From Candidatus Jordarchaeales archaeon (GTDB lineage: Archaea; Asgardarchaeota; Jordiarchaeia; Jordiarchaeales; Freyrarchaeaceae): DNA of 32,000 nucleotides. Below, piece after piece: positions 2,224 through 7,278 of the stretch (position 1 is its first letter; every line of letters starts with the position of its first letter). The translations under genes were made by a program, and so were the position numbers. The stretch lies in the NCBI GenBank assembly GCA_038889235.1, contig JAWAHN010000002.1, positions 224,356 to 256,355 of the forward strand. The letters are read 5' to 3'. Under the pieces are notes generated by a model. It was not told the origin of the DNA. It was given only the letters and a program-made list of their open reading frames with translations, and did no database searches.

Positions 2224-2510
2224 TTTCCCCACACTCCTCCTTAACCAAAAATGGTATGAATCACGCAAATATAACTCTTAACTTTATTCGACTCCGCGCA
2301 GTGTACCGCCGTCCACACGTTCAACTGCCGCAAACTTTCAATTTTTAAAACTCAAAAGCCTAAAACTTAGACTTTCTTTAGAGAAAATCTCGCATAGCAT
2401 CCCTCGGCTCCTCTAGGTTAACTTTTCTTCTGCGGCTCTAAGCGTCAAAGCAAGTGGGGAAAACTATTTTCTCTAGCTGTTCTATTAAAGGTTACCGGAG
2501 GGGAGAGGGG

Positions 2511-4823
2511 ATGGTAAAATTGTTTAGCGTTAAAGTCCCTGTCCTTACAGATTTATCTCTACTTTTAGGCTCTTTCTTCTCTTTCTCTTCAGCTCTTACT
2601 GTAAGTTCACACGTCGAGTCATTGCTCCCCCTTATTGTCTCGTCAACTGTTTCTCCCCTTACCCTCCTGCTCCTGTCCCTTTCTGCAGCCTTCTTCACTT
2701 TCCCTTTGGTGGCCGATGGCCGGAAAAACCTCAACTACATGGTTCCTGCAGGAACACAAATAGCCCTGTCCTACATGGCGGCTTTAACAGGACGTACAGT
2801 GCTCCTGAAAACTCAAAACTTTTCCCTAACTCTATGGGATGGATTCACGGGACAAATCTTATGCTTCACGTCCGTGTTCATCTACTTCGTAAGCTGGCTT
2901 CACTCTACGAAAGGGTTCTCCTCTGTGAAAGGATACCTCCCGCTAGCCGCAGCAGCCTCCCTTCTTCTCCCCCTATCACTCCACAAACCCGTCCCGGTAA
3001 TTGTTCCTGGTGTTGAGTCATACCTCCTCATATTCCCTTCAACCGCTCCCCCCTCCAGTATGGTAACATCTCTCCTGGTTTTCGCCTGCATACTCGTGGG
3101 GATCAACCCTCCAACGGGAAGCCTGTTAGGAAAAGTCTCTACGTTTTTGACGTTTACCCCAACAATTTTCCTCTTGCTCTCCACACCTTCGCTTGCTGGA
3201 AGAGCAGCCTCAATCCTAGGAGAATACGACCACTTAATTCACTCAGCATTCCCCCTCCACTTCAACTTCTTCACCTGTCTCTCACTTACCGCGCTTCTAG
3301 GAGGGGTAGCCATACTTTCGAGCGGGAAAACTGAAAGGCTTGTCCTCCTATCCTGCGCAGCATACGTGCTTTCATACCCAGTATTATACCGGACTTTTAC
3401 CCAACCACTTGAACAATTAGCCGTGGAGCCAGCCCCCCTCGTATGGATTACAGTCCCCCTCGCCACCATAATTCTCCTCGCTCGCCCCTCCATTCGTTCT
3501 CTCAAAACTTTTCCAAAGTTACTCCTAGCTCTTTCACTTCTAGTCCCCTGCATTCTCCCTCCCCTCTATGCTCCACCGCCTTATGCTACAAACTCGCTAA
3601 ACGTCATAAACGAGGATGACCGAATAGATCCAGCTATTCTGGCGATAGAAGGCATACCTACACAACTACACGTGATACTACGCTTTACATCTCTCACAGA
3701 TGACGCTCTGAAAAAACTGAACGAAACACCCTACTTTAAAATATCATACCACGACGGCAAACCTGCAGTATACAGAGGCCAAGTCAACATGGTTTACGGA
3801 GTACTAAACGCGTCCACAAGCAACTGGAAGGACTTAGCTAGAATGCTGGTGCGCGACTTTAACCTAAAATACCTCCTCCTCGACAGAACCCCATCAGAAA
3901 AGCCGACATTCAACGCCGACCCGGCAGTCTACTCTGTTGATGCTGATGTTCTTCACGCTTTGAATGTGACTGGGCGTGGGGTGACGGTCGCCATAATAGA
4001 CTCCGGAATAAACGACCTAGACCCAGAAATAGCCGGAAAAACCGAAGGAAGAATAATATACCAAGTAAACCTCATAACAGGAAAAGAAGGAGACCCACTA
4101 CTAGTAGGAGAATTAACACCAACGGACTCTAAGCTTCACGGAACTTTTGTTGCTAGAACCATTGCTGGAGTTAGGGGTATAGCACCACACGCAAACATAA
4201 TAGACCTAAAAGTCCAGCTCGAAATGGGAGAAATGTACCATGACACGTACCTACGTATAGTTGAGGCTATAGAGTGGTGTATAAGGAACAAGGAGAGGTT
4301 TAACATATCCGTGATAAACCTAAGCATGGGCAACAGAGAGGGGACGGGTGGCGTCATAGACGAAGCGGTGAATAGAGCAGTCCTAGCAGGGATAACCGTA
4401 GTCGCCGCTGCTGGAACATGGCTTAACCCCGCTGAAATTCGTGTCAACTCCATTTTCACGCCAGGAACGGCGGCGCTTGCAGTAACTGTTGGAGCAACGC
4501 AGAGCCATGACAATGACATTTGGGCTTACCTACCGGCAAGCGCCATAGGGCCAGGGCGGTCGGCATTTAAACCAGACGTCGTTGCGCCGGGACCCTACAC
4601 TAGTGGTTCAACACCAATCGTTGCAGGCGTGGCAGCTCTCTTGCACCAAGTTGCCGCTGAGCTTAACATACCGCAAAGCATCAGAAGTCTTGCGGTGAGG
4701 CAGGCACTAATACAGGGTGCAGCCTGCCACGATCTTGGGCCACCAGGTTACGACCCCTTCTACGGGTGGGGCAAAGTCAACGCCCTTTCGTCATACATTG
4801 TGATGAAAAAGAGTTTCTCATAG
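2511..4823 (+). CDS. S8 subtilisin-like serine protease with N-terminal multi-pass membrane domain (paralog 1)
   Basis: AIIDSG (Asp), HGTFVA (His), INLSMG, KPDVVAPG, YTSGSTP (Ser) and YGWGKVNA motifs. The first ~360 aa are hydrophobic. A GGAGGG RBS precedes the ATG at 2511. Confidence 0.85.
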   Translation: MVKLFSVKVPVLTDLSLLLGSFFSFSSALTVSSHVESLLPLIVSSTVSPLTLLLLSLSAAFFTFPLVADGRKNLNYMVPAGTQIALSYMAALTGRTVLLKTQNFSLTLWDGFTGQILCFTSVFIYFVSWLHSTKGFSSVKGYLPLAAAASLLLPLSLHKPVPVIVPGVESYLLIFPSTAPPSSMVTSLLVFACILVGINPPTGSLLGKVSTFLTFTPTIFLLLSTPSLAGRAASILGEYDHLIHSAFPLHFNFFTCLSLTALLGGVAILSSGKTERLVLLSCAAYVLSYPVLYRTFTQPLEQLAVEPAPLVWITVPLATIILLARPSIRSLKTFPKLLLALSLLVPCILPPLYAPPPYATNSLNVINEDDRIDPAILAIEGIPTQLHVILRFTSLTDDALKKLNETPYFKISYHDGKPAVYRGQVNMVYGVLNASTSNWKDLARMLVRDFNLKYLLLDRTPSEKPTFNADPAVYSVDADVLHALNVTGRGVTVAIIDSGINDLDPEIAGKTEGRIIYQVNLITGKEGDPLLVGELTPTDSKLHGTFVARTIAGVRGIAPHANIIDLKVQLEMGEMYHDTYLRIVEAIEWCIRNKERFNISVINLSMGNREGTGGVIDEAVNRAVLAGITVVAAAGTWLNPAEIRVNSIFTPGTAALAVTVGATQSHDNDIWAYLPASAIGPGRSAFKPDVVAPGPYTSGSTPIVAGVAALLHQVAAELNIPQSIRSLAVRQALIQGAACHDLGPPGYDPFYGWGKVNALSSYIVMKKSFS
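3929..4336 (+). repeat. Direct repeat copy A: three exactly identical tracts (3929-4096, 4125-4210, 4250-4336) shared with copy B
   Basis: Base-by-base comparison gives a constant offset of 2461 bp to copy B. Confidence 0.92.
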
Positions 4824-4959
4824 GGCGATTTTCTCATGGATTGTGTTGTTGTTATTTCTGCCCAACATCATTTGTCTTTTCAACTAAATTTAATAATATC
4901 ATGAGTCAATCAAGTAATTTTGGTCAACTAGGTTTTTGGGTGGGGGGCTTTAAGCTTTT

Positions 4960-7278
4960 ATGGAAACACCTTTTAACAATGGGCTCAAAAGTCTCATTCA
5001 AAAACCCATATACGCCGTGGTCCTCGCTTTTCTGGGCTCCTTTTTCGCTCTGCTCTCCATTTTAAGCTTTAGTACTCATTTCGACTCCTTTAATCCTCCT
5101 ATCTTGGTCTCATCAGCTCTGCCGTTCTCTCTTCCCCTACTCGCCATTTCTATAATCTGGTTATCTCTCTTGCTGGCCTTTACAGTTCGACCCAACTTAG
5201 CTTACATATTATCTTCTGCTACACAACTAACTGTACTGCAATTTGCAGCTCTTTCAAACACTACAACACTGCTTCACATGCATACCTTTTCTTTCGTCAT
5301 ATACAATGAGGGCGCGCAAGACATACTTCTCACTCTCCCCGCCACAATCTACTTTTCCTCTTGGCTTCGAGCTACAAGGAAATTTTTCAGCCTAAAAGAA
5401 TGCCTACCCACAATGGCGTCAGCTTTCCTTCTCTTAACTCCATGTTTTTACAACGCTCAGCCTTTAACCCTAATGTGGTTTGACACGACTCTCAGCTCGC
5501 TTCCCGGGCTCGTTCCCCCGTCTGTCACTACAGGGGCAATGTTTACTGCTTCATCAGTTCTTATTGGTCTGAGCCTTACTCGAAAAGCCCCGAAACGTAC
5601 TCTTATCTTCACGTCGATGCCTGCTCTCTTCATAGCTTTGTCCGGCTCCGCTGTTGCTAAAAAAGCTGCTTTCATCACAGGATACTACGACCATATGCTC
5701 CACTCTCTCTTCCCCCCACACTTCAACCTCTTTACGTTTCTTTCAATATTCTCTTTCATGAACGGAATGGCTCTCCTTTCTAACAAGAGAGTGGAGTTTG
5801 TGGCAACACTCTTCTGTATGTCTTTCGCCGCTTCATACCCTGCATTACACCGCGTGACTACTAGAATTCTCACCCCAGTGGCGCTAGATCCCGCCCCTCT
5901 TGTGTGGATCTCTGTAGTGTTCGTTTCCCTAGTTTTTCTTCGTTCACGCTTCTTTGTTAAAGGTTCTCTCTTAGCAATGTTATTCGCTGCCTTAGTGCTC
6001 CAGCCCATAGGGATAGCTCATGCCTCAGTAATGGCAAGCTTTCCTGTTACGTTAACTAGTGAAACCAGAATTGATGACAGAATAGACTCATCAATTTTGG
6101 GGATGACACAACCGCCAGAAAAAATACCAGTAATACTGCGCTTCCCTTATCTAGTGAGCGAAGAAGTGCTCTCTAGGTTAAACGTCATCCCGTTCTTCGA
6201 AGTCTCAAAGCACAACGGAGCCCCCGCAGTATACAATTCACATGTCTGTTTCGTCTACGGAGTGATAAAGACGCAATTTTGCGACTGGCGTGAGGCATCC
6301 AGATTCCTCGTGAAAGAGTTCAACCTCAAATACCTAATCCTAGATAGAGGAATTGACCCCTCACAGCTCCTTAAAGTTCACCCAATAACCTACTCTGTTG
6401 ATGCTGATGTTCTTCACGCTTTGAATGTGACTGGGCGTGGGGTGACGGTCGCCATAATAGACTCCGGAATAAACGACCTAGACCCAGAAATAGCCGGAAA
6501 AACCGAAGGAAGAATAATATACCAAGTAAACCTCATAACAGGAAAAGAAGGAGACCCGCTCGTAACGGGGGATCTGACACCTGCAGACTCTAAGCTTCAC
6601 GGAACTTTTGTTGCTAGAACCATTGCTGGAGTTAGGGGTATAGCACCACACGCAAACATAATAGACCTAAAGGTCCAAGTTGAGACAGGTGAAATGTGCT
6701 ACGTGGACAGCCTACGTATAGTTGAGGCTATAGAGTGGTGTATAAGGAACAAGGAGAGGTTTAACATATCCGTGATAAACCTAAGCATGGGCAACAGGGA
6801 AGGAGGAAGAGGAATCGTGTGCCGTGCCGTCGAACGTGCCAGCCTGGCGGGGATAATTGTAGTTACTGCAGCAGGCTCATATTCAAACCCATTTGAAAGC
6901 TTTACAAACCCTGTCTTCACGCCCGGAGTAAGTAGCCAAGCAGTAACTGTTGGAGCAACACAGAGTTATGTCCACGACTTTTGGGCCTGCTTTCCAGCGA
7001 GCGCTGTGGGAGACTGGGCCAAGCTCAAGCCAGACCTAGTGGCGCCAGGACCTTATACTAGTGGCTCAACACCCATCGTTGCAGGCATAGCTGCCCTCCT
7101 TTTCCAAGCCGCTGAGGAATTAGGTATACCTAAAAGCGTGAGGAGTATTGCCGTAAAGCACGCCTTATTAAATGGTGCTGCGCGAAACGACTTAGGAATG
7201 CCGGGGTTTGACCCGCTATATGGTTACGGTAAGGTTAATGCTCTTGCATCATACCTTGCCCTAAAGAATTTCTCGTAA
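4960..7278 (+). CDS. S8 subtilisin-like serine protease with N-terminal multi-pass membrane domain (paralog 2)
   Basis: Same triad motifs (IIDSG, HGTFVA, YTSGSTP) and collinear with paralog 1 over nearly its whole length. Confidence 0.85.
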   Translation: METPFNNGLKSLIQKPIYAVVLAFLGSFFALLSILSFSTHFDSFNPPILVSSALPFSLPLLAISIIWLSLLLAFTVRPNLAYILSSATQLTVLQFAALSNTTTLLHMHTFSFVIYNEGAQDILLTLPATIYFSSWLRATRKFFSLKECLPTMASAFLLLTPCFYNAQPLTLMWFDTTLSSLPGLVPPSVTTGAMFTASSVLIGLSLTRKAPKRTLIFTSMPALFIALSGSAVAKKAAFITGYYDHMLHSLFPPHFNLFTFLSIFSFMNGMALLSNKRVEFVATLFCMSFAASYPALHRVTTRILTPVALDPAPLVWISVVFVSLVFLRSRFFVKGSLLAMLFAALVLQPIGIAHASVMASFPVTLTSETRIDDRIDSSILGMTQPPEKIPVILRFPYLVSEEVLSRLNVIPFFEVSKHNGAPAVYNSHVCFVYGVIKTQFCDWREASRFLVKEFNLKYLILDRGIDPSQLLKVHPITYSVDADVLHALNVTGRGVTVAIIDSGINDLDPEIAGKTEGRIIYQVNLITGKEGDPLVTGDLTPADSKLHGTFVARTIAGVRGIAPHANIIDLKVQVETGEMCYVDSLRIVEAIEWCIRNKERFNISVINLSMGNREGGRGIVCRAVERASLAGIIVVTAAGSYSNPFESFTNPVFTPGVSSQAVTVGATQSYVHDFWACFPASAVGDWAKLKPDLVAPGPYTSGSTPIVAGIAALLFQAAEELGIPKSVRSIAVKHALLNGAARNDLGMPGFDPLYGYGKVNALASYLALKNFS
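6390..6797 (+). repeat. Direct repeat copy B: identical tracts 6390-6557, 6586-6671, 6711-6797
   Basis: Base-by-base comparison with copy A. Confidence 0.92.

Follow-up and report, generated by a model that had tools for sequence, protein, structure and literature searches.

In mtrA-1 and mtrA-2 of Methanococcales and Methanomicrobiales, one domain has been repeatedly homogenised by gene conversion (Wang et al. 2015, PMC4632066). A survey of concerted evolution in prokaryotes listed 26 genes, including tuf; seven of these were archaeal, all from methanogens. The survey scored whole-gene trees and termed the pattern 'exceedingly rare' (PMC6053082). In Sulfolobus acidocaldarius, homologous recombination is short-patch and discontinuous, with donor tracts that are tens to hundreds of bases long and broken up by recipient-marker blocks (Mao & Grogan 2012, PMC3367456). 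A literature search for 'gene conversion' together with 'Asgard' gave no report of interparalog conversion among the ten best-ranked of 49 matches. Here we describe a tandem gene pair, A and B, from a hot-spring Asgard archaeon. The pair very probably undergoes recurrent, segment-limited gene conversion between old paralogs, with a hotspot that is probably set by homology and a patchiness that may come from heteroduplex handling.

The two genes and their predicted products

Both genes lie in a window of 32,000 nucleotides, which is the whole stretch of DNA that was analysed, and positions in A and B are given in its coordinates.

Gene A: 2454..4823, + strand, ORF of 789 aa from GTG 2454, alternative start ATG 2511
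Gene B: 4960..7278, + strand, ORF of 772 aa, tandem paralog of A with the same architecture

The products are 51% identical overall and have the same domain order, a polytopic membrane domain, a prodomain-like domain and a Peptidase_S8 domain. Amino acid identity is 33% in the membrane part, close to the ~30% estimated in the preliminary description, 42% in the prodomain and 63% in the catalytic domain past the identical tracts. The PF00082 scores of the two genes (95.5 and 97.6 bits) are both above the curated cut-off of 21.8, with E=4.7e-27 for gene A. Alignment to Tk-SP and BPN' gives the triad in the order Asp, His, Ser (D516/H562/S717 in A, D501/H547/S701 in B); among 22 family members the Asp and His are invariant and the Ser is nearly so. 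The closest solved structures by sequence are pro-subtilisins including Tk-SP (E=3e-21). A moderately good AF2 model of A residues 400-789 (pLDDT 74) gave Foldseek matches to ProN-Tk-SP (3afg) and to pro-subtilisin E (3whi), with E=1e-17. These pro-forms rank top in the fold search, and the search of Pfam gave no propeptide match.

Subtilisins read AAGN at the oxyanion-hole site. In both copies the Asn (BPN' N155) is replaced, the site reading AAAG-T in A (4416-4418) and AAG-S in B (6877-6879), and the protease activity of A and B is therefore putative. The N-terminal membrane domain has ~10 helices. It matched no family in Pfam and gave no usable match in the ESM-Atlas, and its AF2 model, built on a 16-sequence alignment, had a pLDDT of 50, too low for a fold search. 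Our data place A and B in a family of predicted membrane-anchored pro-subtilases that has so far been seen in no organisms other than Jord-/Freyarchaeia-type Asgard archaea.

Identical tracts within and between species

A and B were compared in G000, the species under study, by a repeat search and by ungapped alignment at the constant offset of 2461 bp. The first part of the catalytic domain is divided into the following features.

Linker, copy A: 3888..3928, + strand, paralog-specific, joins the prodomain to the catalytic domain; 5' border of the tracts
Tract 1: A 3929..4096 = B 6390..6557, + strand, 168 nt, 100% identical, dS=0; start of the catalytic domain
Catalytic Asp codon: A 3999-4001, B 6460-6462, + strand, within tract 1
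Patch 1: A 4097..4124 vs B 6558..6585, + strand, 13/28 mismatches; 7-residue insertion loop preceding the catalytic His
Tract 2: A 4125..4210 = B 6586..6671, + strand, 86 nt, 100% identical, dS=0
Catalytic His codon: A 4137-4139, B 6598-6600, + strand, within tract 2
Patch 2: A 4211..4249 (QLEMGEMYHDTY) vs B 6672..6710 (QVETGEMCYVDS), + strand, 18/39 mismatches; island of kept divergence
Tract 3: A 4250..4336 = B 6711..6797, + strand, 87 nt, 100% identical, dS=0; helix after the loop, through SMGN
Catalytic Ser codon: A 4602-4604 (YTSGSTP), B 7060-7062, + strand, outside the converted segment

The preliminary description had reported the offset, the three zero-difference tracts and the gaps between them, and all were reproduced exactly. 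It had also regarded the underlying divergence as old and the conversion as recent and patchy, and had proposed dS and GENECONV-type checks between the paralogs. Across the 79 synonymous sites of the three tracts, Nei-Gojobori dS is 0, whereas all remaining parts of the genes give values that are >1.5 or saturated. Concordant runs of variable sites in the tracts (59, 38 and 32) exceeded the maximum of 18 in 10,000 permutations (Sawyer-type), and the same test in the sister species found a run of 111 in G003 and of 49 in G001. These results, together with the species-wise grouping given below, agree with both readings. At the 3' end, the description had placed the end of identity at a second cleft loop. 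Divergence does follow there, but protein identity between A and B runs on through SMGNREG (BPN' 125-131) and diverges only beyond, so that this cleft wall is shared.

Perfect identity could come from a collapsed or chimeric MAG or from polishing, the real copies being different, and assemblies do stumble at this locus. The G001 assembly has a 21-N scaffold gap inside the tract, two MAG contigs end within the tract, and one has a 492-nt chimeric end. However, Logan k=31 contigs from three hot-spring metagenomes of two studies stop exactly 30 nt inside the tract borders (3958, 4307, 6419 and 6768) and hold no alternative version of the tract. The depth of the shared tract is ~2x that of the flanks, at 182.7 vs 95.7 in X1 and 45.2 vs 26-27 in X2; for X2, a value of 44 is expected if 2x shared words are mixed with 1x patch words. 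Contigs X2 and X3 cover 6390-6797 with 0 mismatches and with both B patches contiguous. The X1 bins at 6436-6663 are without cover among the contigs listed and carry no weight as evidence; k=31 contigs do not link patches to flanks, and the phase of patch 1 in G000 rests on the assembly. Five separate MAGs of a G003-like species either contain a 290-nt tract or end inside it, and patch 2 of either copy matches its own orthologs. The ~2x depth and the border-exact contig breaks in two studies therefore indicate that the tract is not a MAG artefact, and we give an assembly origin almost no credence. In practice, short-read assemblies break or turn chimeric at the A/B locus.

Four species were compared: G000, its sister species G003 and G001, which belong to the same genus and also have the A/B pair, and G002. 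Homogenisation within related genomes, which the preliminary description had made a point to check, was found in both G003 and G001. The homogenised tract is 290 nt in G003 and about 149 nt in G001, the latter length spanning the scaffold gap; each has its own sequence, and the 5' border is at 3929/3930 in all three species. Across 3930-4078, the A and B copies of any one of these three species are 100% identical, and identity between species is 82-86%. In the flanks, paralogs are 52-67% identical and orthologs 69-85%. Sequences group by species in the tract, and by paralog in patch 2, the prodomain and the downstream part. Patch 1 was converted in G003, where the 290-nt tract runs through it, and not in G000 or G001. 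Tract 3 was converted in G000 only, A/B dS being saturated there in G003 and G001. Patch 2 stays paralog-specific in 3/3 species with the pair: that of A is 74-85% identical in nucleotides to its A orthologs and 54% to B, and that of B is 72-77% identical to its B orthologs. The earlier view of the gaps as retained divergent segments thus stands for patch 2 and fails for patch 1. Patch 2 contains the sole fixed A/B residue differences in 3929-4336, four across three species (M/T, Y/[CS], D/[VA], T/D), and the linker has 11 fixed differences among the 14 codons of 3888-3929.

A constraint at the nucleotide level, such as an embedded RNA, a regulatory element or extreme codon selection, might also keep the tracts identical without any copying, and this segment is indeed better conserved than any other part of the protein (ortholog pN 0.04-0.10). 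However, about half of the synonymous sites in the tracts vary between orthologs (pS 0.46-0.77; dS 0.7-1.3), each species has its own version, and tract 3 is identical in G000 only. Such a constraint is a most improbable cause of the identity.

In a tree of the non-converted parts, a B clade (100/99), which includes the B-types of G003 and G001, is sister to an A clade (90/97), which includes a single-copy gene of another genus. The analysis shows that A and B were already separate genes when at least two genera split, or that B diverged very fast. G002 has a single gene, which is A-type to about 4566 and B-type at 8/8 diagnostic sites from 4644, and its locus is without B. This gene is an A/B chimera, which probably arose by the same recombination, with loss of one copy. 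Among distant Freyarchaeia-type homologs, conversion was not found in the two copies on contig L042, which are ~73% identical throughout with a longest exact tract of 38 nt.

Patchy conversion and a putative substrate-cleft loop

Our data show that A and B recombine with each other by homology, and that this has overwritten the start of the catalytic domain more than once, over a ~400-bp stretch that takes in the Asp and the His and ends with SMGN. The hotspot would be set by homology, as this is the most conserved segment (about 78-80% nucleotide identity where unconverted), and it would start where the unalignable paralog-specific linker stops. We propose that a conversion event, by making the copies identical again, raises the chance of a further one. 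The patches are the least similar segments (54-70% vs about 78-80%), and they may have been left out of the heteroduplex or restored by uncoordinated short-patch repair. A fixed identity threshold is too simple an explanation, since patch 1 was converted in G003 but in neither G000 nor G001. Genes for RadA/Rad51 and NucS/EndoMS are present. Third-position A makes up 90% in patch 1 of A vs 30% in B, and the run of A-ending codons of tract 1 continues there, which points weakly to A as the source of tract 1; judging from residue patterns, the directions of conversion may form a mosaic.

A second, unrelated paralog pair of the same genome (C3:338880-339294 vs an inverted copy), whose genes encode ~320-aa membrane proteins, has exact tracts of 115, 110 and 67 nt that are separated by diverged patches. 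Because this pair has the same three-tract patchiness, the patchiness looks mechanistic and is by itself no sign of selection on the active site.

Patch 2 aligns to BPN' about 96-104, the loop past 'KV', with a 3-residue insertion (HMMER; BPN' and Tk-SP). This agrees with the earlier assignment of the second gap to a subtilisin loop, and the loop is paralog-specific in three species. In subtilases this loop reportedly forms one wall of the S4-S2 cleft (Siezen & Leunissen 1997), and patch 2 would be the equivalent substrate-cleft loop, judging from the alignment. It is possible that the whole segment is converted and that alleles with an overwritten patch 2 are purged, because A and B need different clefts; the island would then be adaptive. 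The four fixed differences of patch 2, kept across three species despite saturated dS, and its alignment to the cleft loop are consistent with this idea. So are the strongly paralog-specific linker just 5' of the tract and, in G000, the return of perfect identity beyond patch 2, and the escape of patch 2 in three species is also expected if converted alleles are selected against. However, the unrelated membrane-protein pair has the same pattern and needs no active-site story, the patches are simply where A and B are least alike, patch 1 was converted in G003, and A and B do not differ in the other cleft wall, SMGNREG. The cleft placement comes from alignment, the AF2 model of A having a pLDDT of 58 in the patch 2 loop and <50 in the linker, and A and B are putative proteases in which the oxyanion Asn is Thr or Ser. 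We therefore regard purging of overwritten alleles as the less likely origin of the island. Purifying selection on the cleft loop may contribute to a pattern that is explicable without it, and a neutral, self-reinforcing hotspot explains the uniformity of the scaffold as well as adaptation does.

If selection did act, each paralog may need to fit its own prodomain tail or linker for self-processing. In the strictest form of this idea, the linker (3888-3928) and patch 2 would co-evolve as lock and key, selection acting on the recognition by each pro-protease of its own prodomain tail while the core is freely homogenised. We consider this form improbable. If true, it would make the locus a natural experiment that marks the few specificity-setting residues in an undescribed Asgard protease family.

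The preliminary description had further proposed a cassette-like way to diversify protease specificity, possibly across a larger family of copies. Neither proposal was borne out. A search of the 2.14-Mb genome with the 408-nt segment found only A and B, plus one 39-nt chance match, and self-BLAST showed that both copies are full-length genes. The two copies are accompanied by no silent donors, conversion has affected the conserved parts, and the loop differences are old and conserved per paralog. Programmed diversification of the pilE/pilS or vls type, or by diversity-generating retroelements, was also considered and rejected: silent donors are absent, the variable loop is untouched, and the patch mismatches are of all kinds and not adenine-specific. 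The same patchiness in an unrelated pair, the presence of two copies only and the conversion of conserved parts indicate that this is not a cassette system. The A/B pair illustrates gene conversion clearly but is otherwise unremarkable, and it reveals neither a new mechanism nor a system for switching specificity.

Comparison with known systems

As proteins, A and B resemble Tk-SP of Thermococcus kodakarensis (3afg, 9ues) and pro-subtilisin E (3whi) in their putative prodomain, subtilisin fold and Asp-His-Ser triad. Unlike in these proteins, a polytopic membrane domain of ~400 aa that belongs to no known family precedes the rest, Thr (A) or Ser (B) takes the place of Asn155, ~15 residues before the Ser motif are absent, and there are insertions before the His and in the 96-104 loop.

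As a case of conversion, the pair is similar to mtrA-1/mtrA-2: old archaeal duplicates at the same locus, conversion of one domain in separate lineages, and membrane parts that differ (PMC4632066). In contrast to mtrA, A and B are predicted Asgard pro-subtilases with a polytopic membrane domain, and their converted segment is a discontinuous ~400 bp that omits the putative cleft loop. The time depth also differs, with three species of one genus for A/B and billions of years for mtrA (PMC4632066).

The interrupted tracts of S. acidocaldarius are matched by the 168, 86 and 87 nt of A/B and by the 115, 110 and 67 nt of the second pair. The Sulfolobus data come from experimental transformation of a crenarchaeon with marked DNA, whereas ectopic conversion of A/B is natural and deduced from the genome sequence of an uncultured Asgard archaeon. 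Although Sulfolobus is a distant archaeon, a similar short-patch repair may by analogy lie behind the patchiness. Together, A/B and the second pair suggest that conversion in this lineage leaves short, interrupted tracts like those measured in Sulfolobus. The locus is a clean, well-controlled natural case of recurrent segment-limited conversion in Asgard archaea, for which no recombination data were found.

As in the survey of prokaryotic concerted evolution, the paralogs of one species repeatedly resemble each other more than they resemble their orthologs. The A/B case differs in being limited to a segment, and the survey list has no protease and no Asgard gene (PMC6053082). A whole-gene tree would miss such conversion, since the tree of the non-converted parts separates A from B. 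The converted ~400 bp must therefore be omitted when trees are built or orthologs assigned in this protease family. Partial conversion of this kind would escape whole-gene trees, the basis on which the survey called concerted evolution in prokaryotes exceedingly rare.

Genes A and B and their protein family

The window carries two tandem subtilase paralogs:

2454-4823, gene A, ORF of 789 aa, co-directional with B
4960-7278, gene B, ORF of 772 aa, co-directional with A

In each gene, Pfam matches only a C-terminal Peptidase_S8 domain. For residues 400-789 of A, the AlphaFold prediction (pLDDT 74) has its best Foldseek matches among subtilase pro-forms, ProN-Tk-SP of Thermococcus kodakarensis (3afg) and unprocessed pro-subtilisin E (3whi), with E ~1e-17. 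These pro-form matches point to a predicted architecture of a polytopic membrane domain of ~400 aa, a prodomain-like domain and a subtilisin domain. The deposited gene calls are shorter than the ORFs (P0003, 704 aa; P0009, 553 aa; window 2454-2700 and 4960-5600). Orthologs retain the N-terminal stretches of these ORFs, so the starts on deposit probably miss transmembrane helices.

The catalytic triad falls at D516/H562/S717 in gene A and at D501/H547/S701 in gene B. At the site of the oxyanion Asn155, every A gene has Thr and every B gene has Ser, a difference fixed between the paralogs (4416-4418 in A; 6877-6879 in B). The Ser motif (4590-4620 in A) is YTSGSTP, and about 15 residues are absent between APG and Ser. 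This non-canonical active site, at the oxyanion position and the Ser motif, is common to both paralogs and their relatives. The family is small, with at least 22 members at E<=1e-20 in a search of 5.8 billion proteins, in which the 8000 candidates that had the most words in common with the query were scored. The named members among the matches listed are all from Jordarchaeales, Freyarchaeota or 'Lokiarchaeia' MAGs. A Freyarchaeia-type locus, L042:355-8466, has two homologs, ~73% identical and 3.6 kb apart, which enclose genes for a GT2 glycosyltransferase and for a membrane protein of DUF2079 and adjoin sugar epimerase, dehydrogenase and glycosyltransferase genes. This neighbourhood is a hint of a function at the cell surface or envelope.

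Gene conversion between A and B

When A and B are compared at a fixed offset of 2461 bp, three tracts match without a difference: 3929-4096 (168 nt), 4125-4210 (86 nt) and 4250-4336 (87 nt). The two gaps, here called patch 1 and patch 2, have 13/28 and 18/39 mismatches. The A and B proteins share 33% identity over the membrane part, 42% over the prodomain and 63% over the catalytic domain 3' of the tracts. A repeat search and an ungapped comparison at this offset reproduced all figures of the preliminary description on tracts and gaps. Its proposed checks, dS along the paralogs and a GENECONV-like test, gave the same picture. Nei-Gojobori dS was 0 in the tracts (79 synonymous sites) and >1.5 or saturated in all other parts. 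The tracts form concordant stretches of 59, 38 and 32 variable sites, while no stretch exceeded 18 in the 10,000 shuffles of a Sawyer-type permutation. Conversion between A and B is thus real. In gene A, ~35 codons at 4020-4124 are nearly all A-ending (A3 73-90%); this run spans the border of tract 1 and patch 1 in A and ends at that border in B (patch A3 30%).

The assembly was checked with Logan contigs (k=31) from three metagenomes of two studies. At every tract border, the contigs stop exactly 30 nt into the tract (3958, 4307, 6419 and 6768). In one hot-spring run, X1, the contig of 3929-4094 has a depth of 182.7 vs 95.7 in the flank. In a second, X2, a contig covers 6390-6797 with both B-type patches and 0 mismatches at a depth of 45.2 vs 26-27; the depth calculated for two-copy words mixed with one-copy words is 44. 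Three SNPs separate X2 from the window in the unique contig of 2.1 kb that lies between the tracts, and none was seen in the tract. The border-exact contig ends and the depth of the shared tract ruled out an artefact. Public MAG assemblies break at the repeat.

Two congeneric species, G003 and G001, have the A and B pair as well. In G003, A equals B over 290 nt (window-equivalent 3930-4219). Five separate MAGs of the G003-like species have this same tract or contigs ending 127 or 58 nt inside it (L052 and L053), and one has a chimeric end. In that one, the last 492 nt of the contig (L054:5441-5932) follow the A copy, which makes P0010, deposited as a 'partial' B protein, a probable chimera. 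In G001, the identity covers ~149 nt (3930-4078, spanning a 21-N scaffold gap at L035:3678-3698 with a frame change in gene B), with 50 and 23 nt further downstream. The homogenised sequence is 82-86% identical between species at the nucleotide level, with ortholog dS of 0.7-1.3 within tracts. Because it is species-specific, each lineage converted independently and recently. Because no difference is seen at the 79 synonymous sites, the conversions in the present genome would be no older than a few per cent of the age of the species split.

In identity matrices, the tract sequences group by species; those of patch 2, of the prodomain and of the part downstream group by paralog. In the ML tree of the non-converted parts, the B genes form one clade (100/99), sister to an A clade (90/97) that takes in the single-copy gene of another genus (G004). 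This topology suggests that the duplication is old, or else that B diverged fast. A fourth species, G002, has a single subtilase gene; single genes were found at two syntenic loci, L038 and L039 (G002). The G002 gene (L039:5001-6416, a JGI contig; also L036:4255-6558) is A-type as far as window-equivalent ~4566; beyond 4644 and to its end, all diagnostic residues (8/8) are B-type. It looks like an A/B fusion that arose by unequal crossover of the tandem paralogs, the second copy being lost.

Diverged patches and the substrate cleft

Within 3929-4336, only four residue differences between A and B are fixed, all in patch 2 (4211-4249 in A; 6672-6710 in B): M/T, Y/(C or S), D/(V or A) and T/D. 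By HMMER, the patch 2 loop (QLEMGEMYHDTY in A) aligns to L96-Y104 of subtilisin BPN' with a three-residue insertion, and to the corresponding loop of Tk-SP. Residues 100-104 of subtilases are one wall of the S4-S2 cleft, as reportedly described by Siezen and Leunissen in 1997. By sequence alignment, the earlier mapping of this gap to a substrate-cleft loop is therefore borne out; the AlphaFold pLDDT of the loop is 58.

Patch 1 (4097-4124 in A; 6558-6585 in B) is a seven-residue insertion loop ahead of the catalytic His; its place just before this residue had been noted. The G003 conversion runs through it uninterrupted, so it is not a protected segment. The end of identity after SMGN had likewise been assigned to a cleft loop; protein identity extends through SMGNREG (BPN' 125-131), so that this wall is common to A and B. 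All three species share one 5' tract border, which coincides with the end of a paralog-specific linker; in the 14 codons of 3888-3929, 11 differences between A and B are fixed.

The preliminary description also proposed a cassette-like way to diversify protease specificity. A genome search found two copies of the segment only and no donor cassettes. The variable loop of patch 2 is old, is kept within each paralog and is not diversifying; A/B mismatches are of all types, and no such conversion tract was found in the L042 homolog pair. Therefore a cassette device is unsupported, and we rejected it. Overall, the observation stands and its interpretation is retained in part.

Possible mechanism and comparison with known conversions

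No part of the genes is better conserved than the converted segment, with ~78-80% A/B identity where it is unconverted (tract 3 of G003 and G001); the patches have 54-70%. A process that depends on homology would begin and extend in the conserved segment; in the patches it would stall, or the original sequence would be restored. Each event would remake perfect identity and so favour the next. In Sulfolobus acidocaldarius, discontinuous recombination tracts arise via uncoordinated short-patch heteroduplex processing (PMC3367456). The present genome encodes RadA/Rad51 paralogs and NucS/EndoMS; a MutS-like match is weak only.

Self-comparison of the genome revealed a second patchy conversion, between two inverted genes for membrane proteins of ~320 aa without a Pfam family, either side of a 636-aa ORF:

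C3:338880-339294, first copy
C3:341992-342455 (near), inverted copy
L055:654-1616, minus strand, and L055:3913-4866, plus strand, the two genes

Exact tracts of 115, 110 and 67 nt are split by diverged patches against a background identity of 55-65%. Therefore the three-tract patchiness is not special to protease loops. Selection on A- and B-type loops would account for the escape of patch 2 in all three species, but the data do not require it; selection may add to the pattern and is unlikely to be its main cause.

Other repeats were seen in this genome. A 76-nt exact repeat (C2:8797-8872 vs C2:9616-9691) with flanks ~60% identical lies within one Cdc48/p97-type gene (L056:645-2816, minus strand; CDC48_N, CDC48_2 and two AAA domains), and looks like conversion between its D1 and D2 ATPase domains. 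Long arrays of ~76-nt period at two contig ends (C2:1-3900 and C3:466355-470057) are ~70% self-similar at many offsets, match each other inverted and are probably CRISPR or other tandem arrays.

Among the top-ranked literature combining 'gene conversion' and 'Asgard', we found no interparalog conversion in Asgard archaea. A survey by whole-gene trees found recurrent concerted evolution, which it termed exceedingly rare, in 26 prokaryotic genes, of which 7 were archaeal, all from methanogens (PMC6053082). Judging from the tree of the non-converted parts, whole-gene trees would be expected to miss partial conversion like that of A and B. The A/B pair is a further case of an already known phenomenon, gene conversion, and resembles mtrA-1/mtrA-2, for which recurrent, domain-limited conversion between old archaeal duplicates has been described (PMC4632066).
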